64,000 nt of DNA from a virus (Duplodnaviria > Heunggongvirae > Uroviricota > Caudoviricetes), in the IMG/VR virus record IMGVR_UViG_3300001798_000005; one strand, written 5' to 3'. Position 1 is the first letter of the stretch. The number at the start of each line of letters is the position of its first letter. The notes under the pieces were generated by a model, which saw nothing but the letters and a program-made list of their open reading frames with translations, was not told where the DNA came from and ran no database searches. The position numbers and the translations under genes were made by a program. Of the stretch, positions 462 to 59,655 are shown in pieces.

Positions 462-527
462 ATACTCATAGAACTCCCTTATGGATTCTGGTATTATAAT
501 TGTATACCAGAAAGGGAAAGAGGAACG
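462..527 (+). promoter_or_regulatory. Conserved early promoter/operator copy 1: ATACTCAT box, TATAAT (495..500) centred in dyad CTGGTAT-N9-ATACCAG, RBS AAAGAGGAACG
   Basis: 44-nt stretch 484..527 is exactly repeated at 57978..58021; related copies at about 1510 and about 59592. Confidence 0.6.
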
Positions 528-531
528 CCCA

Positions 532-837
532 GTGAACGCCATCGAAACTGCCCAAGCCATCATCGCCAAAGCCCAAGCCACCCTGGCAGATCCCAGTGCT
601 GAACGCGCCAAAGGCGAGGCTTATGTGGACGCCTTGGCGGCTTCGGGAAATCAAGTCAACCAAGCCCTGGCGGCTGGGCTTGACCGGCACCACAGCGCCA
701 ATATCATCGCCCAAACGGATTTTGAATTTGATCGCCGGGACGCCTTCGGGCCTAAAGGAACCGTTCAAGATAGCCGAGAAAACCGCATTGAAGCGGCTGA
801 CCTCTTGGACGCCTTCGAAGAGGAAATGGGCTGGTAA
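532..837 (+). CDS. hypothetical protein (GTG start, about 101 aa)
   Basis: GTG at 532 sits at the same spacing after the conserved RBS as the ATG of the 58026 gene. The upstream ATG at 481 lies inside the promoter element. Confidence 0.5.
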   Translation: MNAIETAQAIIAKAQATLADPSAERAKGEAYVDALAASGNQVNQALAAGLDRHHSANIIAQTDFEFDRRDAFGPKGTVQDSRENRIEAADLLDAFEEEMGW

Positions 838-849
838 AAAAATAAATAT

Positions 850-885
850 ACCGATCGGTAGATTAATTTCTACCATAATAGAAGT
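850..885 (+). promoter_or_regulatory. Two adjacent palindromes (TACCGATCGGTA; GGTAGA-N6-TCTACC) in an AT-rich leader, candidate operator of the downstream RHH gene
   Basis: Perfect dyads read directly, about 60 bp upstream of the 938 ATG. Confidence 0.4.
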
Positions 886-937
886 ATAAACTATGCCATA
901 AGTATATACTATTGAGTTAATATGTAAAGGGGAAGTC

Positions 938-1312
938 ATGCCAAAAAACAACCCAGAGCCCAGGACGGCGCACATCTTCTCAATTCCGGATCGTGAATTT
1001 CAAGCCCTCAAGAGCTTGGCCGCCCAGGCGGGGGTTTCGATTGCTCAATACTGTGAGGACCTAATCATGCTCAATCCCGATATTGAGATTGAGAGAAAAG
1101 AAAAGTGCAAAAACAGAAATATCAACATGTCGGCCACCACCTGGGCGCGGCTCAAAGAGCGGGGAGACCAACTTGGAGTTTCGGCTTGCTCGGTCCTGAG
1201 GGGGTTAATCGGCCCAGCGGCCTTGGTGGATGTCAGATTCATGCAGAATGGTATTCATGTTGTGGCCTCCCCGATGGTCAAGAAGGTGGTCTATAACGCC
1301 CCAGGGGGGTAG
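938..1312 (+). CDS. tandem ribbon-helix-helix (CopG/Arc-like) DNA-binding protein
   Basis: Two RHH-like segments (FSIPDREFQALKSLAAQAGVSIAQYCEDLI and NMSATTWARLKERGDQLGVSACSVLRGLI). Confidence 0.45.
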   Translation: MPKNNPEPRTAHIFSIPDREFQALKSLAAQAGVSIAQYCEDLIMLNPDIEIERKEKCKNRNINMSATTWARLKERGDQLGVSACSVLRGLIGPAALVDVRFMQNGIHVVASPMVKKVVYNAPGG

Positions 1313-1509
1313 ATAAAGTCACCTGGAAGGCGAACCTAGACCCCTTAACTGGACCTCAGAAACCATTGCGCGGGCTCCCGCTCCCCCAAATGACACCAGG
1401 ATACAAGCCAGACATTTGGATGATGGGGGAAGCTTATCCTTCTTTGGAATAATTTTATTTACACAATACCCCTTAGCGAGCGCCAATAGGCGCTCTTTCC
1501 TTTTGTGAT

Positions 1510-1569
1510 AATCCTCATAGAAATATTGATCAAAACTATGGTATAATATCCTCATACCAGAAAGAAAAG
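1510..1569 (+). promoter_or_regulatory. Conserved early promoter/operator copy 3 (ATCCTCAT box 1511, TATAAT 1542, TGGTAT-N9-ATACCAG dyad)
   Basis: Shares box, -10 and dyad with copies 1, 2 and 4. Confidence 0.5.
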
Positions 1570-1599
1570 TTTATCAGTGCCCCTGAAAGGAGCCTACCG

Positions 1600-1803
1600 A
1601 TGCCTACCCCAACTCAACTCTGCCGCCTTAAAGGTCACTTAAAGGAACAATTCCTTCAGGCTCCAATCACGGTCATCACCGGAGAGGCAAGCGAGGCTTT
1701 CCCTCACCGGTGGGTGGCGGAACGTTATCCTGCTTCAATTTGCTTAACCTGGCAGGCCAAAGTAGATTATTGCCAAGAATGCTTTATTGAGCTTCCCGCC
1801 TAA
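1600..1803 (+). CDS. hypothetical protein (67 aa)
   Basis: ORF after GAAAGGAG RBS, downstream of promoter copy 3. Confidence 0.45.
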   Translation: MPTPTQLCRLKGHLKEQFLQAPITVITGEASEAFPHRWVAERYPASICLTWQAKVDYCQECFIELPA

Positions 1804-2077
1804 AGCGGCTCAGCCGCACCCCTGCGTGCCTCGCAACAAGCGGGGCACTTTAGGTTTTCACCCTTTCGGGCTGGCCACTCCTTGGCGGCTGAGTTGTAGT
1901 GTTCGTCCCAGTGGGTCGGGATCACACCTGAGGGGTTGGCTCTGGTCTTTTGACGATTGCCGCCCTGACCGTCCAGTTGGTCCTCGGCTGATGCCTCCAT
2001 CTTGCGGGTCTGTTGGGTCTTGATGTGTCGAGTATTCCAGTGGTGACAAACCCGAGGGTTGCGACGGGTACGGCTCA

Positions 2078-2404
2078 TCAATCCCACCAGTGGTTGCCGA
2101 GTCGGGCCACCATTTGCCAGATCCGATCCCAGTGGTATTTTTCCAGTTTTTCAGAATTTTCATACTGGGCACGCGCCAGTAACGCTTCACCGAAGCGCTT
2201 TTCAATCTTCCAGCCGTCAGGATCTTTAATACAATCCAGCTCCACCACTCCTGTACACAGCCACGGTGAATTCTGGTATCGATCAATATGGGTCCTCATT
2301 ATGGCGATCTGTTCCGCCCTTTTGGCCCCATCGAGCCTGTAGCCGTCCTGGACCGAGGCCTCTAGACGTTTCAGCTTAAAAGACATTATAGGCAAAATTG
2401 CCAA
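2078..2404 (-). CDS. hypothetical protein (108 aa)
   Basis: ORF only; lies in a GC-rich stretch with overlapping ORFs in all frames. Confidence 0.25.
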   Translation of the reverse strand: MAILPIMSFKLKRLEASVQDGYRLDGAKRAEQIAIMRTHIDRYQNSPWLCTGVVELDCIKDPDGWKIEKRFGEALLARAQYENSEKLEKYHWDRIWQMVARLGNHWWD

Positions 2405-2471
2405 AAAGTCAAAGTCATTATCTCACCAGATAATCGGTAGCCAATCCCAGGTTCGGCTTCTCTAATTCTCT

Positions 2472-2885
2472 TCATCTCCTGACCCACCCACGCGGTACAG
2501 GGCGGCCCTCTGATCTAAAGTAATAGGGTTGGACCCCCAATATTGAAATCATGTGCCTTAATGCCTCGCTGGGGGTATGGAAAAATCTCTTTACGTTCTG
2601 GAAGACCAGAATATTCCGATCCCGATAGTGTTTTCTTGCTTTTGGATCCCGATAGCCTCTTTTGACCTGGAGGCGTTTTGTGCGGATCTGATCGACGTCG
2701 AGGTATTCGATTTTGAAATCAAAGCCACTCCCGTCCTCAATAGAACCCATACGGGACCGCCGATAACGGATCAGATAGTCCCGATCCTGAGCCCGTCCCA
2801 GGAGGGCCTCCACGAAGTGCTCAGCCGCCAGGCCGAGCTGGCTAATGGGATCGTCGTAATTATGTTTAGTTTTGGTTTTCTTCAA
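2472..2885 (-). CDS. hypothetical protein (137 aa), possible nuclease-like fold
   Basis: ORF; weak D..E.K-like pattern (GFDFKIEY..QVK). Confidence 0.4.
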   Translation of the reverse strand: MKKTKTKHNYDDPISQLGLAAEHFVEALLGRAQDRDYLIRYRRSRMGSIEDGSGFDFKIEYLDVDQIRTKRLQVKRGYRDPKARKHYRDRNILVFQNVKRFFHTPSEALRHMISILGVQPYYFRSEGRPVPRGWVRR

Positions 2886-3039
2886 TGACCCATAACCTCG
2901 GGAAGCCGTCTATGAGGAGTTTCTGACCTTCAGAATCCCACCAGAGGGAGAAGGTAAAGAACTCTATTACTTCTGTAACTGTTTTTTGCATCATGTGGAT
3001 ATTTTATTATTTTTCTGAAATTTACGCAAGATGACCCAG

Positions 3040-3189
3040 CTACTGCCGGGCCATCTGCTCAATTTTTTCCTTATTGGCTTTGATCCATGCGTGTGCCTCG
3101 CGGGACATCCGGTGGCCGTAGATGACCTTCACCTCCTCTGGTGGCTTGGGTGGGCGGCCACGAGGGCGCTTGGGGGTTGAGTCAGGCAT
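3040..3189 (-). CDS. small AT-hook-like basic protein (49 aa)
   Basis: ATG overlaps the stop of the upstream gene (ATGCCTGA); RPRGRPPK motif. Confidence 0.3.
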   Translation of the reverse strand: MPDSTPKRPRGRPPKPPEEVKVIYGHRMSREAHAWIKANKEKIEQMARQ

Positions 3190-3544
3190 CGCGCTCAACC
3201 TCTATGCTAAGGCTCTCGCATAGGGCTAGTAGCTTTCTGGGCGGGGTATCCCCCTTCTTATTCCGCTCTGCTAGCGTGGCCAGTACCAGTTTTTTAAAAG
3301 CCTCTTTGCAGAGCACAGTTGATCTCCTGTATGTCAGTATGCCTGTGGACGGGCAATAGTCAATGTCTCTGACTAGAGGATCAGCTTCTAGATGAGAGGT
3401 CTGTGGGGGCTGGTATCCGAAGCCAACCAACCATTCAGCGTGGGTTATTTTGACAGAATCAAAATGGTATGACTCTCCGACACGCACAGCTTCATATATA
3501 CAGCCAGCTCTGTGTTGGCCCCTCTTGATGGCCTTTTTGCTCAT
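3182..3544 (-). CDS. hypothetical protein (120 aa)
   Basis: ORF only. Confidence 0.45.
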   Translation of the reverse strand: MSKKAIKRGQHRAGCIYEAVRVGESYHFDSVKITHAEWLVGFGYQPPQTSHLEADPLVRDIDYCPSTGILTYRRSTVLCKEAFKKLVLATLAERNKKGDTPPRKLLALCESLSIEVERDA

Positions 3545-3675
3545 TGGGTTACGTCCTTTCTGGCGGGATTGCCCGCAGCTCTTGGGTATGTAAGTATTAT
3601 CGTCGAGACGGGAAAGAAATGCAATAGTTTTTTGTCGTTACGTTTAATATTTCTTAAATTTTTGTTCTGTAAGAT

Positions 3676-3972
3676 CTATTTAGACAGGGGGAAGAAATAG
3701 GAAGCACGTGCTCTTGTCTGGACTTGTATTTTTTGCTCATCGATTAATTGATTAATCAAGCTATTTCGTTGGCTCTTATTTAGCCATTGAGTCTTTCTAG
3801 TTAGATCCATTTTGTAAATTCCACAATTATCTGAAATTATTTTATAAATTTTATCTTTCTCACTGTGCCGAGTTGGCTTAAACTCCCCCCTGGTGGTTAT
3901 TATTTCAATTATTTTATCCAGCTTCTCCTCCAGGGTGGTTATTTTGCTTAAAATGAAGTCAACAGTATCCAT
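3676..3972 (-). CDS. small wHTH-like protein sharing the C-terminal motif of the primase-polymerase (possible origin-binding regulator)
   Basis: C-terminus LTRKTQWLNKSQRNSLINQLIDEQKIQ versus primase C-terminus LTRKTQNLNKRRRTEILNDLVESHQIQ. Start assigned to the second ATG (AAAGGAG RBS). Confidence 0.5.
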   Translation of the reverse strand: MDTVDFILSKITTLEEKLDKIIEIITTRGEFKPTRHSEKDKIYKIISDNCGIYKMDLTRKTQWLNKSQRNSLINQLIDEQKIQVQTRARASYFFPLSK

Positions 3973-3999
3973 ATATGGCAATCTCCTTTGATAATTCAA

Positions 4000-4306
4000 G
4001 TATTATAATTGATTTTTTTGATTTTGTAATTCATGAAGTGTATTATTAAGAAAAATATACAACTACAATTGTAGCAATATACATGTGTAATAATATATAT
4101 ATAATATTAATATATATATTATTAATATTATATATAGTATAGATCATCTAGTACACTTCATCAACTTCACGCTTCAACCCCGGTACTGTCTCAGATACCG
4201 GGGTATGGATTTTTGGCTTGAAGCGTGAAGTGTGGGGTTGAAAACTTGTGGGTGATTGACTTTCAGCGATATTGAAATCTGACTGAAACGGGCTGAAGCG
4301 TGAAGC
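4000..4306. other. Candidate replication origin: AT-only tract 4081..4140, then iterons TGAAGCGTGAAG (4218, 4294 forward; 4167 inverted) and inverted repeat CCCCGGTA-N10-TACCGGGG (4178..4203)
   Basis: Read directly; lies immediately 3-prime of the primase/helicase gene and 5-prime of the wHTH paralog. Confidence 0.5.
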
Positions 4307-6502
4307 CTAAACTGGCTGGAAGATCCGCCAAATAGACGTCTTGCCATCATTATCGCATTGGATCTGGTGAGATTCAACCAGGTCATTCAGAATTTCGGTC
4401 CGGCGTCTTTTATTCAAATTTTGGGTTTTTCTCGTCAGGGCGGCCTGGGTGATTCCCTGATGGGCCTCGATGATCCGCAATACTTTTTTCAGCTCGCCCT
4501 CGGTTTCGTTGTCGCTGACGTGTTGGCTCACCATGGCCGCCATCCGGTCCGCTGACATCAGGGCGACGTCATTTGCCCAGCTGATTAGGTCTTTTGTGAT
4601 TACGCCATCCCAGGAGGCCGTGAGGGCGATTTTAGCCGAATGCTCAAAGGATCTCGACCAACACCCCTCCAGACCTGACTTGAGACGGATTTCTTCCGCC
4701 TGTCTGGCCCGGCAGGCGATCATGAAGTCATCCCAAGCCTTCTGGGCCTCTGGGGTCATGAGGATCACTTGAGGCCGGATGGCTGGTTTGCCCAGACTAC
4801 TGAGGTCTATCGCGACATGACCGCCCCTCGGGTGGGCATTGGTCGGCATCGCAGCCAGCTCCTTGATGGCGGATACGATCCCCTCTGGGGGTTCCCCGAT
4901 CCCCTGGCGGCAATGGGGGACGAGTTCAAAGCCTTTTTCTTCAAAATAGAGCCACCGGGCCATAAAGCCATCGCTGGACTCTGAACTCGACAGGGCCTCA
5001 TGGATGTGTTGCGGCACAGAAGTTGCATGAACGTTGAGGCACGGCTGGTCGATATCGGTTCTTCCACGCTTGCCGTCGGCGTTCCCGTACTCGGTTCCGG
5101 CGTAAATCTCGTTTGCCTCGCTGAAGAGCTTCAGCATGAGGGTAGTGATCCCCGCCTGGGGACCGGCGTTTTTTCCCGACATGTGCTTCAGGGTCCGGCC
5201 AAACTCGTCCAATTGCAAAAACGCCCGCCCGTTCCGTTCCGCCAAGGTCTTGAGCAATCCGGCCCCCGAGGCGGGGTCTCCCCCGATCAGGCCCGTCAGA
5301 CCGGCCTCAATCAGAAGAATATTGGCGCATTTTCGATTGTGGTCCTTTCCGGCCCCCGAGGCCGCCATCCCGAGAGTATAAAGGTTGGTCCTGAGGTCTG
5401 ATTCGGTCGCGACCCGATGAGCCCGAACGGCTCCCAGCATCGGTAGAGCTGCCGCCATGGCGAGTTCGGCCGACGGCCATGGGGCTCGGTCCATCATCCA
5501 CCGCACGATATCGCCCAACAACCCCGGTGCCCGCAGGAGGAGGTCATTTTGGACAATAGGGACTTCTACCCTTGGGAGTATATTCCCCCCTGGGATGATA
5601 CAGCCCCGATCTACCGGTGGGGGGGCGGGCTTGACCCAGCCATTTTCATAAGCCCAATAGAAGATCGATTCAATTTTCTTTTCATTTCTCTTAAAGGATT
5701 TCCACTTGCCCGGCTGACGCTTTTCCTGATACTTCAGACTGCTACGGCTCCACTGGTCCCAGAGGGGGAACCCCTGATCGCCCAGGTGGGTCTTGAGCGC
5801 CATCCCGACCTCGATCCAAGTATTGTAGTCATCCGCTGGAATACAGGACAGAGCGGACTCGATCTCCTGATCTGAGGTCCAACTGTAGTCTTGCTGGATC
5901 GCGTATGCCGCAGCGGGCTTGAAGCGCCGAAAAATATCGTCAACCCTTTCGCAAAAGTCAACCGGCAGTTGGGGAATTTTCTCAAAATCAACAGTCGTGA
6001 GGTCTTCCTCGGTGAGCCAGCGGTATTCTGCCCCGCAGGGGTGGACCGTCGGGGGGAGGACGGTCTGACGGCCATCTGAGAGGAGTTCAACCACCATATC
6101 GCCATGGAGTTTCCACTGGTGGGTTTCCTCCCCGGAATGGAGGTAAAAGGCCGTGAAGCCCTTTTCGCCCATCTTCTTTACTGGCGAATCCGGCACCATG
6201 GCCTGAATCTCTGCGTGGATGCCTTCGGCGTCAAAGTCATAATCCAAGGCCACCAGACACCCCAGCGGCCCGAGGGTCATCCCGATCCCGGCGTCGGGCC
6301 ATTTCTCCCAGGCTTCGATCTCAGACGGACTAGCGAGCCGGTGGCTGTAGTGCTTGGTCCACTCCCGCATCTTGCCCCAACGGTATTGCTGGATCTCGGG
6401 ATCAAAGTAGTAGCTCCCTGGAGCTTTCGTCCCTGGACAGATCGGGATAACGGGGAGGTCCTTTTCAACGTACCGGCGGGCGACTTGGGCGAATTTTGAC
6501 AT
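4307..6502 (-). CDS. primase-polymerase (prim-pol) / replicative helicase-like protein with C-terminal wHTH
   Basis: 731 aa. N-terminal prim-pol-like region (VIPICPGTKAP...LDYDF), central P-loop-like GMAASGAGKD, C-terminal wHTH. Confidence 0.55.
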   Translation of the reverse strand: MSKFAQVARRYVEKDLPVIPICPGTKAPGSYYFDPEIQQYRWGKMREWTKHYSHRLASPSEIEAWEKWPDAGIGMTLGPLGCLVALDYDFDAEGIHAEIQAMVPDSPVKKMGEKGFTAFYLHSGEETHQWKLHGDMVVELLSDGRQTVLPPTVHPCGAEYRWLTEEDLTTVDFEKIPQLPVDFCERVDDIFRRFKPAAAYAIQQDYSWTSDQEIESALSCIPADDYNTWIEVGMALKTHLGDQGFPLWDQWSRSSLKYQEKRQPGKWKSFKRNEKKIESIFYWAYENGWVKPAPPPVDRGCIIPGGNILPRVEVPIVQNDLLLRAPGLLGDIVRWMMDRAPWPSAELAMAAALPMLGAVRAHRVATESDLRTNLYTLGMAASGAGKDHNRKCANILLIEAGLTGLIGGDPASGAGLLKTLAERNGRAFLQLDEFGRTLKHMSGKNAGPQAGITTLMLKLFSEANEIYAGTEYGNADGKRGRTDIDQPCLNVHATSVPQHIHEALSSSESSDGFMARWLYFEEKGFELVPHCRQGIGEPPEGIVSAIKELAAMPTNAHPRGGHVAIDLSSLGKPAIRPQVILMTPEAQKAWDDFMIACRARQAEEIRLKSGLEGCWSRSFEHSAKIALTASWDGVITKDLISWANDVALMSADRMAAMVSQHVSDNETEGELKKVLRIIEAHQGITQAALTRKTQNLNKRRRTEILNDLVESHQIQCDNDGKTSIWRIFQPV

Positions 6503-6668
6503 CAGGCGACCTTTCTCTATATGGGTTTTTGATCGTACTCTATTGAGTCAAAAAGGTCAAAAAACAATCATTAAAAAATTCACTTGACCGATCGGATATT
6601 CTTTCGTAAGATTTTGGAATCGGAAAGCATCGCTTTTTGATACTTTATGAAAATGAAAAGGAACGCCC

Positions 6669-7496
6669 ATGCTCGATCTTAAACAGCTCAAGCCAAAAGT
6701 AACGCACGATCCCCCCCGGTTGGTCTTCTATGGTCCCCCCGGCAAGGGAAAGACCTACACAGCCGCCCAGGCGGGCGAGCATATCTTTCTGAATATCAAT
6801 GATGGCCTCGGGGGCATCCCCCATACGGCTTTCCCGATCCGGGGCGCCGACAAGGGCGATGATATCTTCAAGACCTACGATGAGATCATCTGGGCCCTGG
6901 ACGCCATCCTGAATCAGGATCATGACTTTCGGGTCCTGATCATTGATGGTCTCTCTGACCTGGAGGAGCTCATCCACCGCCAGATCTGCGCCGCCTCGGG
7001 GGTGAGTACGATCGCCAAGGCCTGCGGGGGATACGGGAAGGGCTACGTTGAGGCCATGAACTCCTGGAATGAGGTCTTGTCCCTCTTGAGCCAGATTCGG
7101 CAAAAGCGGAACATGGTCATTGTCCTGTTGGCCCACTCGAATATCAAGTCCTACGCTGACCCGATGGCGGACTCCTATGACCGCCATGTCCTAAAGCTCC
7201 ATGACGCTGCAGCTTTTCGGATCCGAGAATGGGCGGATGCGGTTTTGTTTCTTGATCAGAAGGTCTATATTGACAAATCCCAAGAGGGCATGAAGAAAAT
7301 CGCCAAGGCGAATTCCTTGGGGCTAACGTTTTTCACCTCTGAGAATCCCCGCCATCAGGCTAAAAACCGATACGGGCTGCCCTCGGAGATCCCTATGTCG
7401 TGGCAGGGGCTCATGGCCGCCATGAGCGAAGCCGCGACAAAAGCGAACACCGTAACAGCAAGCGAGAGAGAGAACACACACAATGGCACGATTTGA
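6669..7496 (+). CDS. Sak4-like RecA-fold ATPase (AAA_24-type)
   Basis: Walker A VFYGPPGKGKT; size and adjacency to a DUF669-like gene. Confidence 0.6.
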   Translation: MLDLKQLKPKVTHDPPRLVFYGPPGKGKTYTAAQAGEHIFLNINDGLGGIPHTAFPIRGADKGDDIFKTYDEIIWALDAILNQDHDFRVLIIDGLSDLEELIHRQICAASGVSTIAKACGGYGKGYVEAMNSWNEVLSLLSQIRQKRNMVIVLLAHSNIKSYADPMADSYDRHVLKLHDAAAFRIREWADAVLFLDQKVYIDKSQEGMKKIAKANSLGLTFFTSENPRHQAKNRYGLPSEIPMSWQGLMAAMSEAATKANTVTASERENTHNGTI

Positions 7497-14844: not shown

Positions 14845-15312
14845 AAAAGGGATGAGACTTACGTTGGAGGACGTCGCCGGGGAAAGCGCGGAAGGGGAGC
14901 GGAAGGTAAAACCCCGGTAATCGGCATTGTGGAACGTGGTGGGGAAGTCAAAGCCATTGTGTCCACCGATACTAAAGCCGCAACTATACTACCGTTTATC
15001 TGCGAAAACGTAGAGCCCGGTTCTCAGATGATGACGGACGAGTACGCATCCTATAGCAGGATCTCATTGAACGGTTTCACTCACCAGCGCGTGAACCACG
15101 GTGTTGGTGAGTACGTGGCGGGCATCGTCCACACAAACACAATCGAAGGATTCTGGAGCCAGTTAAAGCGCTCCATAAACGGGACTTATCACTCGGTTAG
15201 TCCGCGTTATCTTCAGTCGTATGTGAATGAGTTTGCGTATCGTTATAATCGTCGCCACGTCCAGGAGCATCCTTTTCACGCTTTGACTTCAACGGCTGCG
15301 CGGCTCGTGTAA
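14845..15312 (+). mobile_element. IS1595-family (ISXO2-like) transposase DDE-domain fragment, in frame after the helicase TGA; lacks start codon and N-terminal Zn-ribbon (pseudogene/remnant)
   Basis: KRDETYVGGRRRGKRGRGAEGKTPVIGIVERGG ... VSTDTKAA ... HTNTIEGFWSQLKRSINGTYHSVS..YLQSYVNEFAYRYNRR. Confidence 0.7.
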
Positions 15313-15345
15313 GGATACGATCAAACTCTTCTTCAGTGATCGACA

Positions 15346-16119
15346 TCACACCTCCAACTTATTTATTTGAGTTGCTTCTAAAATGCTAATGATTTTTTCG
15401 CCCAAAGGGGAATTGCGATAGACAGGAGTTGCATAAATCTTTACGGGTAAATTATTCCTAACTTCCTCCTCAAGAAAAGCATTGTCTTGAATCGCGCACT
15501 TATATGACTTAGAAGCACCGTCCAATTCTACAAAAAATCGGCAAGTCCTCTTTTCCCAATCAATACTCCGAAGCTCTCCGGTCAATTCTTGAGGTTCTCC
15601 GCGCTCTGTTTGAGGCTCTGGAGTCGATATAGGCTCAGCCTCAATAAGTTTAGGCTTAACCTCTTCACTTGAAATTGAATATATAGGTTCTGGGTTTTCA
15701 TCTTCAAAGGCTTCAGCGCTCTTTATAAAACCGGCAAGAAATGGGGCGGCAAGTCTATCAGTCACACGTTTAGGCAGACGACTTTTACGTGTCGTTGTGG
15801 TAGTTGTAGTTTCCGTCTGTTCAAATGTATCCATTCCGTTCAGCCGATCATTCACTTCTGTTGCCATTTTTGTCAGGTAACTTTGAGTTAATGGAAGTAC
15901 CGTTTGCAAACCTTGAACTAAAAAATCGAATTCCCACGAACCGTGGTAGACATCAATGAGTCGCAATTCAGGAATTGAACCATTTTTCTGCTCTTCCCTT
16001 ATAATTATCCCTAGTGTTTCTTGATGCGCCATAAAGAAGTCGCGCAACATATCTATAGAGATGCCATCATTTCCCTCGGGCTCAAGACGTATCTTTAGTT
16101 TGACAGATTCCACACTCAT
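15346..16119 (-). CDS. hypothetical two-domain protein (257 aa) in AT-rich passenger region
   Basis: ORF with poly-Thr linker; lower GC than flanks; TTGACA-type promoter candidate at about 16174. Confidence 0.45.
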   Translation of the reverse strand: MSVESVKLKIRLEPEGNDGISIDMLRDFFMAHQETLGIIIREEQKNGSIPELRLIDVYHGSWEFDFLVQGLQTVLPLTQSYLTKMATEVNDRLNGMDTFEQTETTTTTTTRKSRLPKRVTDRLAAPFLAGFIKSAEAFEDENPEPIYSISSEEVKPKLIEAEPISTPEPQTERGEPQELTGELRSIDWEKRTCRFFVELDGASKSYKCAIQDNAFLEEEVRNNLPVKIYATPVYRNSPLGEKIISILEATQINKLEV

Positions 16120-16516
16120 TTTCCATGACCTGACTCAGTTACTACGAGCGTCATGGTATCACAAACACATACCTGTCAAGAGGGGATAGTTACCAATGAT
16201 CTAGTTAATAAAATCTGCTCCTGAGCCACATCAGGACCTCCCAGAGGGCGATCAGGCAAAGGCCAAAGCCCGCCATCCGCATTCCCAACAGGGCACCCTC
16301 AGGCAATTTTGTAATCCTGAATTGAGCCATTCACCAAGGCCCAATGATCGCCCTGATAGGCCTGGACGGCGTCCATCTGGGCGGCTTGGATCTGATGATT
16401 GATTTCCCGCTTGAGTTCGGGATTAAGTTTGAATTTTCTTTCAATGTTTGCCATATAGTTTTGAAACACTTCTCGATCCTCCTGTTAATTACATAATATC
16501 AGATCGATGTAGGGTG

Positions 16517-38498: not shown

Positions 38499-38500
38499 CG

Positions 38501-44959: not shown

Positions 44960-44968
44960 GAATCTATT

Positions 44969-52362: not shown

Positions 52363-52366
52363 GCGG

Positions 52367-52936: not shown

Positions 52937-53093
52937 TAATAAATTTTTACAACGGGCAATGCCGCAAAAATTGATTGAACAGAAGGAGGACCCCCAACCG
53001 TGACCAAATTTAGCGCCCACCTGGATCGCGTATCAGCCATTGTGGACAAGTGGCCCGAATGGAAACGTAATATTTTTGGAGGAAACGAGAAAA

Positions 53094-53276: not shown

Positions 53277-53381
53277 GATGCTGGTACACCCTCGTCCAGG
53301 CCTACTGGGACGTCAGGCAGGGACACGAGCGGGCAAAGCTTTGGCAACGTATTGGTAAGGATTTGAAGGAAAAGAACAAAA

Positions 53382-53798
53382 ATGCTGACAAATGAGGAAT
53401 TAAATGCGATTCACAAGCGCTACCCGTTTAATCAGGATGGGGATATCTGGCATTTGCTGGCCCACATCACCGAGCAGCAGGAGGCCATTGAGAAGCTGCG
53501 GGAGGCGCTGAAGTGGTACGACTTTAAAGACATTCCGGGCAAAGAGAGCTATGATCAGTGGAAAAATAGGACTAAAGTCAAAGCGGGAGAGATTGCGGAA
53601 ACGGCCCTCGCCACCCCCATCGCCCAAAAGGCCCAAGCGGAGGCGAGGGTGCTGGAAGCGGCGAAGGGGATGGTGGCGGAGATGGAAAGACGCGGGATTG
53701 ACACGCACGGGGAGAGTTTCAATCCTCTTTATCGGCATATTGTTGATGCCGTCGAAGCCCTCCGGGCGCTGGAAGGGGGCGGTAGATGCTTTGGATAA
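53382..53798 (+). CDS. hypothetical protein, paralog A (MLTNEEL...LLAHITEQ family)
   Basis: Shares N-terminus and AHITEQxExIxKLR motif with 54087..54560; 21-nt DNA identity at 53455 and 54389. Confidence 0.5.
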   Translation: MLTNEELNAIHKRYPFNQDGDIWHLLAHITEQQEAIEKLREALKWYDFKDIPGKESYDQWKNRTKVKAGEIAETALATPIAQKAQAEARVLEAAKGMVAEMERRGIDTHGESFNPLYRHIVDAVEALRALEGGGRCFG

Positions 53799-53838
53799 AT
53801 CAGATTTTTTGTAAGCACAAATGGGAATACAGGGGTGA

Positions 53839-54072
53839 ATGGAAAAACTTCTTCGGGGCCACAGCAACACGATACCAATGCAAACATTGCAAAAAAATCA
53901 TTCACGAGGAGGGATAGAAATGCTGTTGAGACTCCTTAAATTCTTGATTGGCTGGGAACCTTGCCGACATCAATATGAAAAGGTGGCAAATGTTTTTGAG
54001 GATGGTGATTACACCCTTCCCATACATATCAAATATCGCTGTGTCCATTGTTGCAAAGTCAAAAAAGTTTAG
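53839..54072 (+). CDS. small Cys/His protein
   Basis: CRHQ...CVHCC. Confidence 0.35.
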   Translation: MEKLLRGHSNTIPMQTLQKNHSRGGIEMLLRLLKFLIGWEPCRHQYEKVANVFEDGDYTLPIHIKYRCVHCCKVKKV

Positions 54073-54086
54073 GGAAGGATTAAAAA

Positions 54087-54560
54087 ATGCTGACAAATGA
54101 GGAATTGCAGGCGATAGCCGAGCTTGAGGAAAGAGCCACTAAAGGGCCTTGGTTTATAAAAACCGACTCCTGTGATTGTGGAGACGGCTATGGATGCTCT
54201 CACAGGGCGTGGGGCTATGAGCTTTATCGTGTAGATCCAGAACCAGATCCCGAATGGGGAGACATGGAAACAAAAGCCCGCCAATGCCTTTCCGGTCTAT
54301 ATCAGCGTCCGGTTGCTGAAGATATTATAATAAGCGTTGATGATGGTGAATTCTGTGCCACCGCCCGCACAAACATCCCCGCGCTCCTGGCCCACATCAC
54401 CGAGCAGGCGGAGACCATTGGGAAGCTGAGGGACGTAATCAGAAAATCTACCACCTATCGATACCAGACGTGTGATGGCACTTGGTGTACAGGGTGCTGG
54501 AAAGACTTGGCACGCGATACCCTCGCCGAAACAGCCGCGTTTGAGACCAACAATGTTTAA
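54087..54560 (+). CDS. hypothetical protein, paralog B with Cys-rich insert
   Basis: See paralog A. Confidence 0.5.
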   Translation: MLTNEELQAIAELEERATKGPWFIKTDSCDCGDGYGCSHRAWGYELYRVDPEPDPEWGDMETKARQCLSGLYQRPVAEDIIISVDDGEFCATARTNIPALLAHITEQAETIGKLRDVIRKSTTYRYQTCDGTWCTGCWKDLARDTLAETAAFETNNV

Positions 54561-55131
54561 AAAAGCTAAAATAGATCTCAACACTTATCTGATCGCTGAT
54601 CTCCATCTCGGCCATAAGGGAATTATCAAATTTTCCAGAACTGAATTCGAGACCCTCGACCAGCACCACGCGGCCATTGTTGAGAGATGGAACTCAGTCG
54701 TTTGCCCCAATGACAAAATACTGATCCTGGGCGATCTAGCGTTTACGATCCCTGAGCTTGAAATCCTCCATGACCTGAAAGGGAGCAAGATCCTCGTCAT
54801 GGGGAACCATGACCTTAACAGCGCCTCCAGGTATTTGAAGTATGTCGATGACATCGGAGGCGCAGTCAACTGCACCATAGGGGATAAACGGCTGATCTTC
54901 ACCCATATCCCGATTCACCCAAATTGCATGCGATGGGATCTCAATATTCACGGCCACCTCCATGGGGGGCAGATTTTGGATCATACGCAAGTGGACAAGC
55001 CAAGGGATTTGCGATATTATTGCGTAAGTTGGGAGATCCTAAACGGATATCCCGTGAAGTTAGGAACAGTACTGGAAAGGATTGATAATGAAAATCACCA
55101 TCCCGGCGGAATTAATCCCCAAGAGCATTGA
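54553..55131 (+). CDS. calcineurin-like metallophosphoesterase
   Basis: DLHLGH, GDLA, GNHD, GHLH motifs. Confidence 0.55.
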   Translation: MFKKAKIDLNTYLIADLHLGHKGIIKFSRTEFETLDQHHAAIVERWNSVVCPNDKILILGDLAFTIPELEILHDLKGSKILVMGNHDLNSASRYLKYVDDIGGAVNCTIGDKRLIFTHIPIHPNCMRWDLNIHGHLHGGQILDHTQVDKPRDLRYYCVSWEILNGYPVKLGTVLERIDNENHHPGGINPQEH

Positions 55132-55345
55132 AATTCAATGCAACCCGGATGGGTCCCTCTCTCCACTGGTGACAATAAGATTTGCCATCTCGCCACAACG
55201 GGAAGGCGTCTCTGGGAGAGAAAGTATCTACACTTATTCAAATTTCATTTCTGCCGCCCTGGTGGGGAGGCTCGTTGAAGAAATCACCCAAGGGGTTGAG
55301 GAGAAGCTCATAAAAGATCTTTCAGAAGACCTGGGGGAGGAATGA
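55082..55345 (+). CDS. hypothetical protein
   Basis: ORF. Confidence 0.35.
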   Translation: MIMKITIPAELIPKSIEIQCNPDGSLSPLVTIRFAISPQREGVSGRESIYTYSNFISAALVGRLVEEITQGVEEKLIKDLSEDLGEE

Positions 55346-55551
55346 GCCATCCTGAGCCGAGAATCAATATAGCGCCCCTCAGGGATGCCGGTTATACCTT
55401 TATTTTGCGCCAGAGCAACACGGATGGACACTGGAAGTATAAAAACGGCCCCCTGATGAGTACTGCCAATGCCCTGAAGGACCTAGAGAAGAGGAAAATT
55501 GCTATCCATAGCCGCAAAGTTATGAAGCGACCCGCCTGGGAGGGGATTTAA
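55342..55551 (+). CDS. hypothetical protein
   Basis: ORF. Confidence 0.35.
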   Translation: MSHPEPRINIAPLRDAGYTFILRQSNTDGHWKYKNGPLMSTANALKDLEKRKIAIHSRKVMKRPAWEGI

Positions 55552-55832
55552 CCAGCAGGGAGGATAATGGAGGAAGCAATGTCGTTTTCCCGAGGTAACC
55601 ATGGTCAGCGCCATTTATGTCTTCACCGGTGATCGGACCACCTATGTCTACCTCCCCCAGAGGGGGCTGCCCAACGGGGCTGCGTTGGCGGAATGGGTTT
55701 TCAGATACCTACATGAATATTACTATTTATTTACTTTATAGATCCATGGTGGATAACATGGAGGGTTAGGGATTATTGACACCAGGTGGAATTTTAGATA
55801 AAATTACGTAATATCAGCAGAAGGAAACAGCA

Positions 55833-56177
55833 GTGAATTATAAAGAATTTATCACCCTGGCCAGTCAGGGGAAAAAGCTCCGAGATAAAACTTGGGGTAA
55901 GGAACTGTGGATCCAGATGAGGGATGATGGGACTTTTATCAGCTCGGACGGTCGGGCAATGCACTATCAGGCTGGGGCAGACGTTTCTGAATTTGAGATC
56001 TTTATCGAGCCCGTGACCTTTGAGGCATGTCTGGCTGCGCAAAGTGTCAATATTATATTTCCCGGCGGAAACGGATCTTCTGATGATAGCTATACTCAAT
56101 CAGGCGGTTGGACCCTCCAGGAGCTTTCAGTTTTTGATCTCGCCATCCGGTATGGTTGGGAAATCGAACTCTCATGA
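55833..56177 (+). CDS. hypothetical protein
   Basis: ORF. Confidence 0.4.
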   Translation: MNYKEFITLASQGKKLRDKTWGKELWIQMRDDGTFISSDGRAMHYQAGADVSEFEIFIEPVTFEACLAAQSVNIIFPGGNGSSDDSYTQSGGWTLQELSVFDLAIRYGWEIELS

Positions 56178-56884
56178 TCGCCATCCCCGACATTCATGGC
56201 CGCTATGATCGCCTTCAGGCCATTCTGAAACTGTTAAAAGAGGCCGGAAAGGCCGATCCCAAAAATATGATCTTCCTCGGGGATTATGTAGACCGAGGCC
56301 CGGAGTCGGCCCAAGTGGTCTCGACCCTGCGGGAGTTTCAGCGCCAAGGGGCTATTGTCCTTAAGGGCAATCATGAGGGGCTGATGTGTGATGCGGTTTT
56401 AAAGGGCCACTTTGAAGCAACTTCCCTTTGGGAGATGAACGGCGGGGGTGAGACAAGGCGATCCTATCATGCGACCTATCAGGACCCCAGCGCAGCCCTG
56501 AGGTATGATGCCAAGTGGCTGCAGGATCTGCCGCTCTATCACGAGAACGAAACGGAGTTCTTCTCTCACGCGCCCCTGCCACCGCTGTTAGAAAAATCTT
56601 CTCAATTCCCAGATTGGCGCTTGGCGCTCCTGAATGAGCAGATTATGACCTGGAGCTACTTCCAGCCAGAGAATGCCGCCTTCAAGGTGCCGGGCAAGGA
56701 TGCCTATTGCGGCCACGTCCACGCCCTCCGGGCCAATATCTGGTTACCTCGCTTTTATGAACGCTATGCCTACCTGGATGCCGGGTGCGGTTGCCTCCCT
56801 GATGCTAAACTGGTGGCTTTCGATACTGAAGAAAAGAGACTTTATGTTGATGACCTGGAGAAACAATATGGAACCTTTGAGTAA
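56174..56884 (+). CDS. lambda-type Ser/Thr protein phosphatase (PPP family)
   Basis: DIHG, GDYVDRG, GNHE and LWEMNGGGETR parallel lambda PPase motifs. Confidence 0.65.
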   Translation: MIAIPDIHGRYDRLQAILKLLKEAGKADPKNMIFLGDYVDRGPESAQVVSTLREFQRQGAIVLKGNHEGLMCDAVLKGHFEATSLWEMNGGGETRRSYHATYQDPSAALRYDAKWLQDLPLYHENETEFFSHAPLPPLLEKSSQFPDWRLALLNEQIMTWSYFQPENAAFKVPGKDAYCGHVHALRANIWLPRFYERYAYLDAGCGCLPDAKLVAFDTEEKRLYVDDLEKQYGTFE

Positions 56885-57242
56885 AGACAAAGAACTAGCG
56901 GAAGACTGGCGGGAGCTGGCGGAGGCTTTTCTAAAATTGCAGGATGTGGCCCAGAGGATGGTACCATTAGTGGTCGATCATGCTGAGGACCTGAAAAAGC
57001 GCCTTGCCCACAAGAGCGCCTCTTGGTCTGCCCTGAAGCACAAGGGCAAGAATCAGCGGCACGAGCTGGATCGTCAGCAAAGGAGGCTCCAGAAGCAAAA
57101 GCGAAAAATCGAGGAATTGACCCTTGAGAACCAAGGATTGAAACAGCTCATCACCATTAGGGCGATGGACAGTATGGGCTATAAAGTTGCCGAGGCTTTT
57201 TCACCGGACTCTGGCAGGTCCCCTGAAGGCATTGACGATTGA
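56868..57242 (+). CDS. coiled-coil protein
   Basis: ORF with heptad-like basic region. Confidence 0.35.
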   Translation: MEPLSKDKELAEDWRELAEAFLKLQDVAQRMVPLVVDHAEDLKKRLAHKSASWSALKHKGKNQRHELDRQQRRLQKQKRKIEELTLENQGLKQLITIRAMDSMGYKVAEAFSPDSGRSPEGIDD

Positions 57243-57511
57243 AAGACGACATTGCAGCCGCCATGGAGATTGTCCTGAAGGGGGGCGGAAGTATCCCGAC
57301 ATTGCTCTTTATCCCCGGGCACGGATTCTTGGACGCTCAGGGGATCCGGGATCTCCTGATGGGGCTCAATGATTCTTCTTTAGATTTTCTCAAAAAACTC
57401 CAAACCTGTCACCCAGTAAGGGTTTTCAAAGGCAAGTCTCAGCCGATCCCCGGCGGCGGCTTCGGGGGAAGGTTAAAGCTCAACCGCCTCAGCGACAAAA
57501 AGGATCCCTGA
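57239..57511 (+). CDS. hypothetical protein
   Basis: ORF. Confidence 0.35.
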   Translation: MKDDIAAAMEIVLKGGGSIPTLLFIPGHGFLDAQGIRDLLMGLNDSSLDFLKKLQTCHPVRVFKGKSQPIPGGGFGGRLKLNRLSDKKDP

Positions 57512-57841
57512 CGTCAAGGCCCCAGAGGACTGGATGACCAACGCAGCAGCGGATTCGGTGGCGAGGATGAAGCTATCGACGTCCCCACAGGGGACCGAAA
57601 CCTGTAGGCCATCATTGGCGGCCAGCTCAGGGATGCAGAGCGTGGTGGAGCCGCTTTTGAACGTAATGTTCATCGCGGTGCCATCGCTGATCCAGGCTCC
57701 GACGAGAAAGATTTTAGCAACCCCGGTGGGGGTTCGGATGGTCAGATCTGCCCCGGTGGTGTCGATAACGACTTTATACCCGTAGACGGTGGCCTTGCCC
57801 CGGCGGGTAATGGTGCTGACGAGTGTTGCTGAATTGGCCAT
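57473..57841 (-). CDS. hypothetical beta-rich protein, divergent from promoter copy 2
   Basis: ORF only. Confidence 0.4.
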   Translation of the reverse strand: MANSATLVSTITRRGKATVYGYKVVIDTTGADLTIRTPTGVAKIFLVGAWISDGTAMNITFKSGSTTLCIPELAANDGLQVSVPCGDVDSFILATESAAALVIQSSGALTSGILFVAEAVEL

Positions 57842-57955
57842 AAGGATCTCCCTGTCTGTTTATTTGATCATAAGCCATGGATCTGCTATGATGACTCCAC
57901 CATAGCTAAACCTTTATCCTTATCTGGCCGCAAGAAATTGTGGCTTTTCTTTGTG

Positions 57956-58021
57956 AATCCTCATTTGACTGTCATTTGATTCTGGTATTATAATTGTATA
58001 CCAGAAAGGGAAAGAGGAACG
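57956..58021 (+). promoter_or_regulatory. Conserved early promoter/operator copy 2 (ATCCTCAT 57957, TTGACT 57965, TATAAT 57989, dyad, RBS)
   Basis: 57978..58021 identical to 484..527. Confidence 0.6.
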
Positions 58022-58025
58022 ACAG

Positions 58026-58250
58026 ATGAACAGCCCGAAAACGAAACCAGAACGCCTTCAAGAAGAACTTGAACTTTCCCTGGATGTCCTTGACTCACTC
58101 CAGGAGAAAATTGCCGCAATGCGGATCCTCTTGGAAACCGGCAAGGCTGATCAGTATGCTGGCCGAGAGCTTCGATTCGCTGAAGCGTCCCTGCCGGGGG
58201 CTGAGTATGATATCCGGCGGTTTCAAGAAGCGATTGCCCTTTCAGCTTAG
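58026..58250 (+). CDS. hypothetical protein (74 aa)
   Basis: ATG at conserved spacing after repeated RBS. Confidence 0.5.
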   Translation: MNSPKTKPERLQEELELSLDVLDSLQEKIAAMRILLETGKADQYAGRELRFAEASLPGAEYDIRRFQEAIALSA

Positions 58251-58886
58251 GCTGAAGGGCTCGCCGTTGCGGGTGATCGGGAGGGTGGGGTAAACTCTTC
58301 TAACTTTATAGAGCATCTCATCACACGCCTGCGGGCTGCCAGAACCAACAATGAGCTGGTGTGTGCCTATGTCAAAAATATCACCCGGTTGACAAAATCC
58401 AGTTTCAGGCGCCTGTGGGGGCGGGGCCATTGGAGCTTCCAACTCCTCAACGGATTCCCCCAAGTCCAGATCGGGGAAATTGATCTCATCCAGCAATTCT
58501 GAAAGATCTATATCCTCCACGAAGGCGTCAAAGCTCTCCTGGGTGATGGTGCCGTGCTCGCTTGATGCCTGGAGGACCAGGGCCTTCGCGCCTTCGATGG
58601 ACTCGGCCCATATCTCGACAACCGGGAGGTCTGGCACGGTATAACCTTCGGCCTCTAGTTCCGCCAAGGCCTTGCAGCGCCCAGCGCCGTCGATGATGAG
58701 GCGGTGATCGGCCCAGACGTAGAAAGGAAAGCAGAATCCACGGTTGACTATTGCGTTTTTGAGTTTTGAGATATCTCGGTCCTCAACGGCCTTGAGGGTA
58801 TTGGCCTCGAAGGTCTTCAGCTCCCCCCAGGAGAGGGTTGGAACGTTTTGGACCTGAATGGGGAAGGTCTTTTGTTTCTTGGCCAT
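58242..58886 (-). CDS. ParB/Srx-like N-terminal nuclease-domain protein
   Basis: NAIVNRGFCFPFYVWADHRLIIDGAGRCKAL; acidic C-terminal half. Confidence 0.4.
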   Translation of the reverse strand: MAKKQKTFPIQVQNVPTLSWGELKTFEANTLKAVEDRDISKLKNAIVNRGFCFPFYVWADHRLIIDGAGRCKALAELEAEGYTVPDLPVVEIWAESIEGAKALVLQASSEHGTITQESFDAFVEDIDLSELLDEINFPDLDLGESVEELEAPMAPPPQAPETGFCQPGDIFDIGTHQLIVGSGSPQACDEMLYKVRRVYPTLPITRNGEPFSLS

Positions 58887-58894
58887 GTGTGTCT

Positions 58895-58917
58895 CCAATT
58901 AGGAAGTTCCTAATTGG
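58895..58917. promoter_or_regulatory. 23-nt palindrome CCAATTAGGAA-G-TTCCTAATTGG overlapping the RBS of the ParB-like gene (operator or parS-like site)
   Basis: Perfect 11-bp arms read directly. Confidence 0.45.
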
Positions 58918-58959
58918 ATTTTACTTGCCAGATGGGCGAAGTTATGTAACAATTGGAAT

Positions 58960-59109
58960 ATGAAACAATTCCTTTCCAACCGGCAAAAATCCCGCACCCC
59001 GAGAGGTGGCGGCTTTTGGTGCGTGAATTGTGATCGATGTATCGTTTCAGCGGGGCAGAGATGTCCTGTCTGTAGAGTCAGAAACGGAAAAAAGAGAGAT
59101 AAGCCTTGA
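58960..59109 (+). CDS. basic zinc-ribbon micro-protein (49 aa)
   Basis: CVNCDRC...CPVCRVRNGKK. Confidence 0.3.
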   Translation: MKQFLSNRQKSRTPRGGGFWCVNCDRCIVSAGQRCPVCRVRNGKKRDKP

Positions 59110-59462
59110 AGATAATCGTTTGTGGCGGCAGAAATTACACCGATAAGTCTTTTGTCTTTGAGTGCCTGGATGAGCTGAACGCGACAGGATTTATTGATCA
59201 GATCATTAATGGCGGAGCCAATGGCGCTGACGCCTGGGCCGAACTATGGGCAAAAGAACGGGGCAAGGATTGTGTCACTATCCCGGCCAATTGGCTAAAA
59301 TTTGGCAACCAAGCCGGGCCAATCAGAAACGCGCAAATGATCCAAATGAAGCCGGATCTCGTGGTGGCGTTCCCAGGGGGTAAGGGCACGGCCAACATGG
59401 CCCGGCAGGCAGTCTCGGCAGGTATAGAAGTCTGGAAAATGGAAAGGGATAAAAGTGACTGA
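59106..59462 (+). CDS. DUF2493/YspA-like SLOG-family protein
   Basis: IIVCGGRNYTD...INGGANGADAWAELWA...VVAFPGGKGTANMARQA pattern recalled from DUF2493; TTG start. Confidence 0.4.
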   Translation: MKIIVCGGRNYTDKSFVFECLDELNATGFIDQIINGGANGADAWAELWAKERGKDCVTIPANWLKFGNQAGPIRNAQMIQMKPDLVVAFPGGKGTANMARQAVSAGIEVWKMERDKSD

Positions 59463-59591
59463 ACCTTACAATTCCCATAAAGCTGGTAAAGATTTGGCCG
59501 CCAAGGTTAGGCCCTTATTCCGGGCGGGCCTTCTTGGCAGCCATGGAATCTTTCCCGGCTACAAGAATTATCTTTTGGTTCGATAACTGAT

Positions 59592-59655
59592 AATCCTCAT
59601 ACAATTCCATAAATCGTTTTAGTATAATAACCATATACCAGACAACAGAGGAACG
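59592..59655 (+). promoter_or_regulatory. Conserved early promoter/operator copy 4 (degenerate left arm)
   Basis: TAATCCTCAT 59591, TATAAT 59623, ATACCAGACAACAGAGGAACG. Confidence 0.45.

Follow-up and report, generated by a model that had tools for sequence, protein, structure and literature searches.

The 64,000-nucleotide stretch analysed here (the window; IMG/VR virus record IMGVR_UViG_3300001798_000005) comes from a virus of the Caudoviricetes and carries four copies of a long promoter-like element, in which an inverted repeat joins an extended -10 sequence to the predicted transcription start. Positions 1-3985 of the window are identical to 60016-64000, the genome being 60,015 bp long, circular or circularly permuted, with a wrap of 3,985 bp. 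The contig from which it comes, ENA ERZ27300258 k141_267388, has 60,156 bp, in agreement with this length and an assembly overlap of 141 bp. Since the window runs past the genome start, every feature of its first 3,985 bases is shown twice. The four copies had been reported at 462, 1510, 57956 and 59592, where all of them are present; owing to the wrap, they form one co-oriented cluster on the + strand extending over 3.6 kb, in the order P3 (57956), P4 (59592), P1 (60477, the same site as 462) and P2 (61525, the same as 1510), so that P1 and P2 appear in the window a second time. The wrap, the terminators adjoining two of the copies and the behaviour of the elements as cassette boundaries were absent from the preliminary description of this DNA. 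Relatives were reached through the primase-polymerase (prim-pol) protein, after scans with DNA patterns had given none. They are L275, a 23-kb Logan contig whose prim-pol is 79% identical to that of the window; L390, a second contig from the sample of L275; and L281, a 1.2-kb NCBI contig carrying a P3 ortholog.

The promoters of the cluster, with their terminators and the genes they precede, lie on the + strand. A terminator-like hairpin with a T tract (57926-57945), conserved in L275 and L281, is found directly upstream of P3. The P3 promoter itself (57955-58006) comprises a box ATCCTCAT (57957-57964) followed by TTGACT (57965-57970), a left arm TTCTGGTAT (57980-57988), TGG (57983-57985), the hexamer TATTAT (57986-57991; alternative TATAAT, 57989-57994) and a right arm ATACCAGAA (57998-58006), with the predicted +1 position at 57998. 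The leader and gene that follow (58007-58250) contain the Shine–Dalgarno sequence AGAGGAA (58013-58019) and a 74-amino-acid (aa) ORFan starting at ATG 58026, which has a 66% identical ortholog in L275. P4 (59588-59642) consists of the box TGATAATCCTCATACAA (59588-59604), TAG (59620-59622), TATAAT (59623-59628), the discriminator AACCAT and the block ATACCAGA (59635-59642), and its operon (59643-60466) encodes a 53-aa CxxCxGxG zinc-finger protein (59660-59821) and two further proteins of 96 aa (59818-60108) and 93 aa (60185-60466, equal to 170-451). P1 (457-512; duplicate at 60472-60527) has the box TGATAATACTCATAGAA (457-473), a left arm at 486-494, TATTAT (492-497) and the right arm ATACCAGAA (504-512). 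Its leader and gene (513-837) include a Shine–Dalgarno sequence (519-525) and a 101-aa ORFan from GTG 532; with the publicly annotated start, ATG 481, the gene would run into the P1 promoter, and this start is corrected here to GTG 532. P2 (1506-1561; duplicate at 61521-61576) is directly preceded by a terminator hairpin, GAGCGCC-AATA-GGCGCTC, with a T tract (1478-1505, hairpin 1478-1495; duplicate at 61493-61520), also conserved in L275. It is made up of the box TGATAATCCTCATAGAA (1506-1522), TGG (1539-1541), TATAAT (1542-1547), the discriminator ATCCTC and ATACCAGA (1554-1561), and the rest of its cassette (1562-1848) holds a 46-nt leader, a 67-aa ORFan (1600-1803) and a closing terminator (1826-1848). 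Terminator hairpins adjoin the promoter at P2, at P3 and at two L275 promoters, and are absent at P1 and P4. Almost none of the small open reading frames (ORFs) behind P1-P4 has a family match.

A single register fits all copies: a box TGATAATCCTCAT, 21-23 nt, TGG (TAG in P4) and TAT(A/T)AT as an extended -10, six variable nucleotides, and the block ATACCAGA. The -10 hexamer has the form TAnnnT throughout (TATTAT in P1 and P3, TATAAT in P2 and P4; TATAAT, TATAGT and TATGAT in L275), and one base upstream of it stands TG, as TGG in P1, P2, P3 and most L275 copies, replaced by TAG in P4 and its ortholog. The preliminary description had placed a TATAAT inside the dyad. The -10 does lie within the dyad, but in P1 and P3 the hexamer that fits is TATTAT (492-497 and 57986-57991), the TATAAT previously noted being located 3 nt downstream. 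The P3 ortholog of L275, which lacks those 3 nt and reads TGGTATAAT-CGGGTT-ATACCA, fixes the register. As to the -35 region, P3 has TTGACT at 15 or 18 nt and P2 has TAGAAA at 18 nt, while none was found for P1 and P4; a -35 hexamer is not required in extended -10 promoters. In L275, TTGACN is found mostly 15 nt from the -10, not 17, and the promoter at 16153-16179 of the window also has a distance of 15 nt; this lineage may follow a preference of its host, unless the element is something other than a -35. A Shine–Dalgarno sequence and a start codon follow each element after 20-46 nt. The main replication operon is preceded by an ordinary promoter, TTGACC-17-TAAGAT, without the motif.

The upstream box is also present as described, though longer than previously noted: three copies, all but one, read TGATAAT(C/A)CTCAT(A)(G/C)AA. 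A GATAAT lies within the box. The reported identity of two copies over 44 nt was recovered exactly between P1 and P3 (484-527 and 57978-58021), whose start codons, GTG 532 and ATG 58026, are equally spaced. Regarding the arms, given as (C)TGGTAT and ATACCAG, the inner 6-bp TGGTAT/ATACCA is kept in L275 and in orthologs of two promoters, but conservation does not reach the outer C:G pair or the 9-bp extension. Specifically, the dyad reaches 9 bp in P1 and P3 (TTCTGGTAT/ATACCAGAA), and matches at 6 of 7 positions in P2 and at 5 of 7 in P4, where the left arm is TAGTAT.

These elements stand out clearly from the background of the window. The pattern GTATWAT-N6-ATACCAGA has six matches in the window against 0.00 expected, and the 26-nt core TGGTATAAT-N6-ATACCAGAAAG, with up to three mismatches, is found only at these sites (0.00 expected). 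For the dyad CTGGTAT-N9-ATACCAG, again with up to three mismatches, seven matches were counted against 1.55 expected. Among all 8-mers of the genome within one mismatch of ATCCTCAT, only these four precede a -10 and ATACCAG.

The preliminary description had let its proposal depend on the conservation of the dyad in related phages. On this point it was not refuted: the motif and the inner dyad are kept in L275 and in the orthologs of two promoters; L275 contains five TGGTAT-N9-ATACCA sites (up to one mismatch), all at promoters. In the P3 orthologs, the discriminator reads AATTGT in the window, CGGGTT in L275 and TAAATT in L281, while the block at the +1 position is ATACCA in the window and in L275 and GTACCA in L281, and the left arm begins with TGG, TGG and TAG, respectively. 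When P4 is compared with its L275 ortholog, the box is identical at 22 of 22 positions, the discriminator at 3 of 6 and ATACCA at 6 of 6, with a left arm TAGTAT in both. The information content calculated over 12 promoters of this family (group A) peaks at TGGTATAAT and at ATACCA, with a trough between them. ATACCA, kept in orthologs while the neighbouring discriminator is scrambled, is therefore under purifying selection.

When the cluster was aligned with L275, conserved blocks were found to alternate with replaced ones. The terminator, P3 and the 74-aa gene are kept, as is the ParB-like gene, and in place of the 0.6 kb from the latter to P4, L275 has 2.9 kb with different small genes. The two sequences match again from 59583, 5 nt short of the P4 box, through P4 and the first two genes of its operon; the 93-aa gene, P1 and the 101-aa gene are then replaced. 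Further on, homology is kept up to 1504, in the terminator before P2, and breaks at 1504/1506, where this terminator gives way to the P2 box. Instead of the entire P2 cassette (1506-1861), L275 carries two different promoter-gene units, and homology is back at 1862, after the closing terminator. The L275 promoter that resembles P2 most closely has another location. Gene replacements between the window and L275 start and end at promoter or terminator motifs. Separately, when this phage was assembled from short reads, the sequence was interrupted exactly at the P3/P1 repeat (57992, 60528). The repeat explains these breaks, which were rejected as a sign of recombination and ascribed to an assembly effect.

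In conclusion, the elements form a genuine family under selection and look like extended -10 promoters of the host polymerase; they head and delimit exchangeable ORFan cassettes, in what is a fairly ordinary phage gene-cassette layout. The palindrome adds a further feature. When TGGTAT-Nx-ATACCA was searched with up to one mismatch and x from 0 to 20, a sharp peak appeared at x = 9, with five sites in the genome at this spacing and one other at x = 11; the same scan on L275 gave five sites at x = 9 and two others at x = 4. The exact sequence GGTAT-N9-ATACC, expected 0.03 times per window, is found beyond the promoter cluster once, at 16155-16173. This fifth dyad, TGGTAT-N9-ATACC (16154-16174, within a feature at 16153-16179 on the - strand), is part of a promoter, TTGACA (16179-16174)-15 nt-TACCAT (16158-16153), that stands before a 257-aa ORFan (15346-16119, - strand). 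Here the dyad covers the spacer and the -10, a different register relative to the start site. The 257-aa ORFan and a 127-aa ORF (14929-15312, + strand) are missing in L390, where a 56-aa gene stands directly before the SNF2 helicase, and the region 14929-16298 is a moron-like insertion.

For a constrained 6-mer at the +1 position to match exactly the reverse complement of the extended -10 beside it, the prior odds are about 1 in 4096. Together with the spacing peak at 9 and the fifth site in another register, this favours a symmetric protein site. Like a repressor-operator, the dyad keeps a fixed spacing and is repeated at several promoters. We favour, with moderate confidence, the explanation that the elements are paralogous host sigma-70-type extended -10 promoters heading mobile ORFan cassettes, with the palindrome, which spans -15 to +6, as a probable candidate operator for a protein. 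According to this model, host sigma-70-type RNA polymerase would read the promoters through the extended -10 (TGn-TATAAT) and start at the A of ATACCAGA, 7 nt past the -10, giving transcripts with short, purine-rich, unstructured leaders and a strong Shine–Dalgarno sequence, followed by small ORFan genes. The promoters, together with the terminators before two of them, would delimit self-contained cassettes in a plastic, presumably early, region beside the replication genes, and the repeats could act as recombination joints through which cassettes are swapped between related phages, as with the PeSLs of T4-type phages. The arms TGGTAT (-15 to -10) and ATACCA (+1 to +6) would bracket the DNA that must melt, so that a dimeric DNA-binding protein occupying the palindrome as its operator could block the polymerase and shut off the cassettes together; weaker left arms, as in P4, would be weaker operator sites. 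What the sequences show directly is the motif with its statistics, the retention of ATACCA beside a scrambled discriminator, and the cassette boundaries. Start site, timing, recombination and, above all, repressor binding are what we infer from this arrangement, and the same applies to the 'early' timing, co-regulation and repression put forward in the preliminary description. Anti-sigma control, also suggested there, found no support.

Several observations weigh against this explanation. In agreement with what had been reported, no CI/Cro-type repressor was found in the roughly 70 ORFs scanned, nor any other helix-turn-helix repressor. The half-sites are 15 bp apart from centre to centre, about 1.4 helical turns, a spacing that is unusual for simple dimeric repressors. 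The fifth site is only marginally significant (0.03-0.14 expected), and its cassette is missing in the relative L390. Two L275 family members, ATATTGAA and ATATCAAC, keep TGG/TAG-TATAAT, have lost the right arm and are still good-looking promoters. The motif is absent from the 22 kb examined of L278 and L279, whose prim-pol is 41-42% identical, and a terminator adjoins the promoter at P2 and P3 only. Finally, paralogs retain ATACCAGA as their right arm regardless of what the left flank is, which fits equally well a sequence-specific role of the transcript start.

This last point leads to the alternative that survives best, although we consider it less probable than the operator: ATACCAGA(A)AG would be conserved for itself, as the initial transcribed sequence or the mRNA 5' end, its complementarity to TGGTAT being incidental. 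The block could make promoter escape efficient where the extended -10 binds very tightly, or it could label the 5' end of the mRNA and so influence its stability, its translation or its degradation at a later stage. The block starts exactly at the predicted +1 position and is kept in P4 and its ortholog despite their left arm TAGTAT; P1, P2 and P3 have ATACCAGAAAG in common with unrelated left flanks; and the leaders are purine-rich. In this they resemble the strong T5 early promoters, whose strength depends in part on the transcribed region. What holds us back from this alternative is the low chance of exact complementarity to the adjacent extended -10 calculated above, and the same dyad with the same spacing at 16154-16174, where a role at the start site is impossible.

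An improbable alternative is that the dyad works as a nucleic-acid hairpin, either as an RNA stem-loop in read-through or upstream-started transcripts, by which the message would be stabilised or processed just before the ribosome-binding site, or as an extruded DNA hairpin promoter of the N4 type. For P1 and P3 a 9-bp stem is indeed predicted (-10 to -13 kcal/mol, z = -3.1), the tandem arrangement means that upstream transcripts cross the promoters, and the GATAAT in the box could serve as an upstream -10. However, the P2 and P4 stems are no better than those of shuffled sequence, an Rfam search gave no match, and no compensatory change between the arms was found in the 12 promoters, the mismatches in P2, P4, L275 and L281 being unrepaired, which argues for a protein site rather than a hairpin. 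N4-type hairpin promoters have a 5-7 bp stem and a 3-nt loop and are served by a giant virion RNA polymerase; with its 9-nt loop and no virion RNA polymerase gene in the genome, whose largest ORF is a 1108-aa tail protein, the element is excluded from this type.

Slightly less probable still is a symmetric bidirectional promoter, in which TGGTAT would be engaged on either strand, leading to divergent transcription or self-competition. Symmetric promoters are common in bacteria (bioRxiv 10.1101/2020.01.31.928960; PMC12825309), and one L275 site reads TGGTATGAT and TGGTATACT on opposite strands, with a small ORF on each side. Against this, by a manual reading only about 4 of 11 distinct promoters show, in the opposite-strand hexamer (TAT plus three discriminator bases), the last T that is essential, which is chance level, and at three of the four sites there are no leftward genes in the window. 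In the described type of symmetric promoter, the starts are 18 bp apart, compared to about 10 bp for those predicted here. Least probable of all, a recent duplication or gene conversion alone, with no constraint on the dyad or on ATACCA, would suit the identity of P1 and P3 over 44 nt and the break of the public assembly exactly there, but is largely refuted by the ortholog alignments, since P2 and P4 have diverged everywhere but in the box, the -10 and ATACCAGA, and orthologs at about 75-80% DNA identity keep ATACCA with the neighbouring bases randomised.

Returning to the operator, the protein previously proposed as its binder is an unlikely one. The gene (938-1312, + strand) encodes a 124-aa protein described as a tandem ribbon-helix-helix (RHH) protein and, in both phages, has a different conserved palindrome upstream. 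Together with the AT-rich block preceding it, it occupies 843-1312. This 68-bp block is the only intergenic DNA common to the window and L275 besides promoters and terminators; it is 81% conserved and lies directly upstream of the RHH gene in the window and upstream of the RHH operon in L275. Between 843 and 911 it contains the palindromes TACCGATCGGTA (850-861), GGTAGA-TTAATT-TCTACC (857-874), which resembles an Arc operator, and AGTATATACT (902-911), in addition to a promoter, CATAAT-N6-ATAAAC, before the RHH gene. The Arc-like palindrome GTAGA-TTAATT-TCTAC is more likely the target of the RHH protein than the promoter dyad is. The 124-aa protein has a 47% identical ortholog in L275 and weak RHH matches to ParD, FitA, NikA and an Arc-like PHROG; among PDB sequences only ParD was retrieved, with E = 1.7. 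A single-sequence AlphaFold model, of which the secondary structure alone was used because of its low confidence (pLDDT 56), predicts two beta-alpha-alpha units. Combined with the weak RHH matches, these units make the 'tandem RHH' label a reasonable one for the modelled protein. No RHH homolog was found in the partial loci without the motif, where coverage is too small to count.

A similar module was encountered in six IMG/VR contigs of 43% GC (L051, L126, L136, L128, L143 and L065; group B), which carry several copies of TTGACA-16-TGGTATAAT-N6-ATACCAGA and share nothing detectable with the window at the protein level. Of the roughly 11 members of their promoter family at each locus, only 4-5 have ATACCAGA, the rest starting with TTAGACAG, ATAGACAG, GAAGAAGG and others. 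With such a fraction and no common proteins, these contigs were dropped as an independent confirmation of the module. Since TGGTATAAT and an ATA start are both common and IMG/VR holds very many phages, the match may be a coincidence. As an observation on these loci in their own right, L051 (5770-8860) and its related loci contain about 11 near-identical promoters per 15 kb, each with an upstream inverted repeat AGTAC-N7-GTACT followed by TTGACA-16-TGGTATAAT, and their start blocks differ by small indels (ATAGACAG, ATACCAGACAG, ATACACCAGAG). In addition, a repeated element ending in GAAATGCTCCCCTTTTGTTAGACAATGTGGTATAATATAAATATACCAGAATT was seen at many contig ends (L170, L221, L223, L237, L241, L260 and L268, mostly from one Oscillospiraceae metagenome-assembled genome, JBJEQS01); it probably represents an insertion sequence or some other element present in many copies, with a promoter facing outwards.

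A bolder version of the operator hypothesis, which we put forward as a speculation of rather low probability, is that TGGTAT-N9-ATACCA would be the operator of a new kind of phage regulator, with half-sites about 1.4 turns apart clamping the transcription bubble at both its edges. A host factor could play this part, or a tandem RHH protein acting as a single chain, and this one protein would time the shut-off of the whole set of mobile ORFan cassettes, including morons such as that at 16154; the recurrence in group B would then be convergence. For practical purposes, the motif marks small ORFs that are likely expressed together, and, if the favoured explanation holds, the 44-nt strong promoter with its candidate operator would offer a handle for an early regulator of a clade without a cultured member.

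The gene content of the genome, an identical copy of which is present in Logan SRR6213120, is that of a siphovirus, with a T4-type large terminase, a Mu-like portal, a tape measure and a lambda-J-like tail protein, the latter two being the largest ORFs (1042 and 1108 aa for tape measure and J-like protein, respectively). A prim-pol, PIF1 and SNF2 helicases and several methyltransferases are also encoded. No phage RNA polymerase candidate was found among the ORFs of the genome, and a tRNA search of the genome was negative. Among GenBank phages there is no relative at the DNA level; the closest large terminase (TerL) is 44% identical, and the homologs of TerL, J and prim-pol disagree on the host, pointing to Rhizobium phages, to Caulobacteraceae and Pseudomonas prophages, and to Isosphaeraceae. 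HIP1 is not enriched in the genome. The tetranucleotide GATC is over-represented, with 543 copies in 60 kb (about 2.3-fold more than expected), in a phage that encodes several DNA methyltransferases.

Scans of IMG/VR with box-containing patterns returned chance or coding matches only and no relative, and the prim-pol protein query against IMG/VR returned nothing. In JGI metagenomes the group-A pattern gave 0 matches, and a more general pattern gave 12 singletons with no multi-copy locus, judged to be about chance level. A scan of a bacterial genome collection with the motif yielded about 120 singletons, no multi-copy locus and no host, which was judged consistent with chance.

Other features of the genome were observed alongside the cluster. 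The region 4013-4150, just upstream of the prim-pol gene, is extremely AT-rich and palindromic, and is followed by three copies of GAAGCGTGAAG, one inverted (4165-4175) and two direct (4219-4230 and 4294-4305); by its sequence, 4013-4305 looks like a replication origin with iterons. A 107-aa AT-rich ORF (3676-3999, - strand), which has no separate gene in L275, has some 50 aa in common with the prim-pol C-terminus, in what may be a winged-helix domain. A 52-aa protein (3040-3198) contains an RGRP motif of the AT-hook-like kind. Two pairs of direct repeats, 89-91% identical (53378-53410/54083-54115 and 53457-53503/54387-54433), indicate a local gene duplication on the - strand, between 53378-53503 and 54083-54433. 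Within the cluster, a perfect 11-bp inverted repeat, TCCAATTAGGA-AGT-TCCTAATTGGA (58894-58918), lies between the divergent ParB-like gene (58242-58898, - strand) and a 49-aa zinc-finger gene (58960-59109, + strand), and is probably an operator for a divergent promoter pair. The ParB-like protein has 218 aa in the window, and its 80% identical L275 counterpart has 416 aa and an N6/N4 DNA methyltransferase domain; the window copy appears truncated.

The architecture described above can be compared with that of several known systems. The early promoters A1-A3 of T7 and those of T5 are sets of several near-identical strong host-polymerase promoters at the start of the early region. As in these phages, conservation reaches into the purine-rich transcribed region, whereas the T7 and T5 promoters have a good -35 and no palindrome joining the -10 to the +1 position. 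With lambda OR/OL and P22 Pant (Arc, Mnt), the cluster shares a dyad over the -10 and the start site and the presence of several sites of graded quality per genome; it differs in the half-sites, here about 15 bp apart compared to about one helical turn, in having no lysogeny module, and in that the operator is putative.

The morons of lambdoid phages are promoter-gene-terminator units (Juhala/Hendrix 2000). Self-contained units between conserved genes are likewise found here, for example P2 with the 67-aa gene and its terminator, or the promoter at 16154 with the 257-aa gene, but these units have one promoter family in common and are clustered in tandem.

The PeSLs (promoter-early stem-loops) of T4-type phages are sigma-70-like strong promoters that come with terminator hairpins, are concentrated in hyperplastic ORFan regions and drive modular shuffling (Arbiol et al. 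2010, PMC2839356; Comeau et al. 2014, PMC4122927). Unlike the T4-like myoviruses, the phage studied here is a siphovirus, its tail being lambda-J-like and its portal Mu-like; only two of its four copies have an adjacent terminator, and its promoters show an extended -10 instead of a consensus -35, together with an extra palindrome from -15 to +6. Nevertheless, both systems present a multi-copy strong sigma-70-like promoter in a plastic ORFan region (here four copies in 3.6 kb), the coupling of some copies to a terminator hairpin, and boundaries of insertion, deletion and replacement between close relatives that fall at the motifs (59583, 1504/1506 and 1862). If this likeness holds, promoter-bounded cassette shuffling, detailed only for T4-type myoviruses, would also operate in an unrelated siphovirus lineage.

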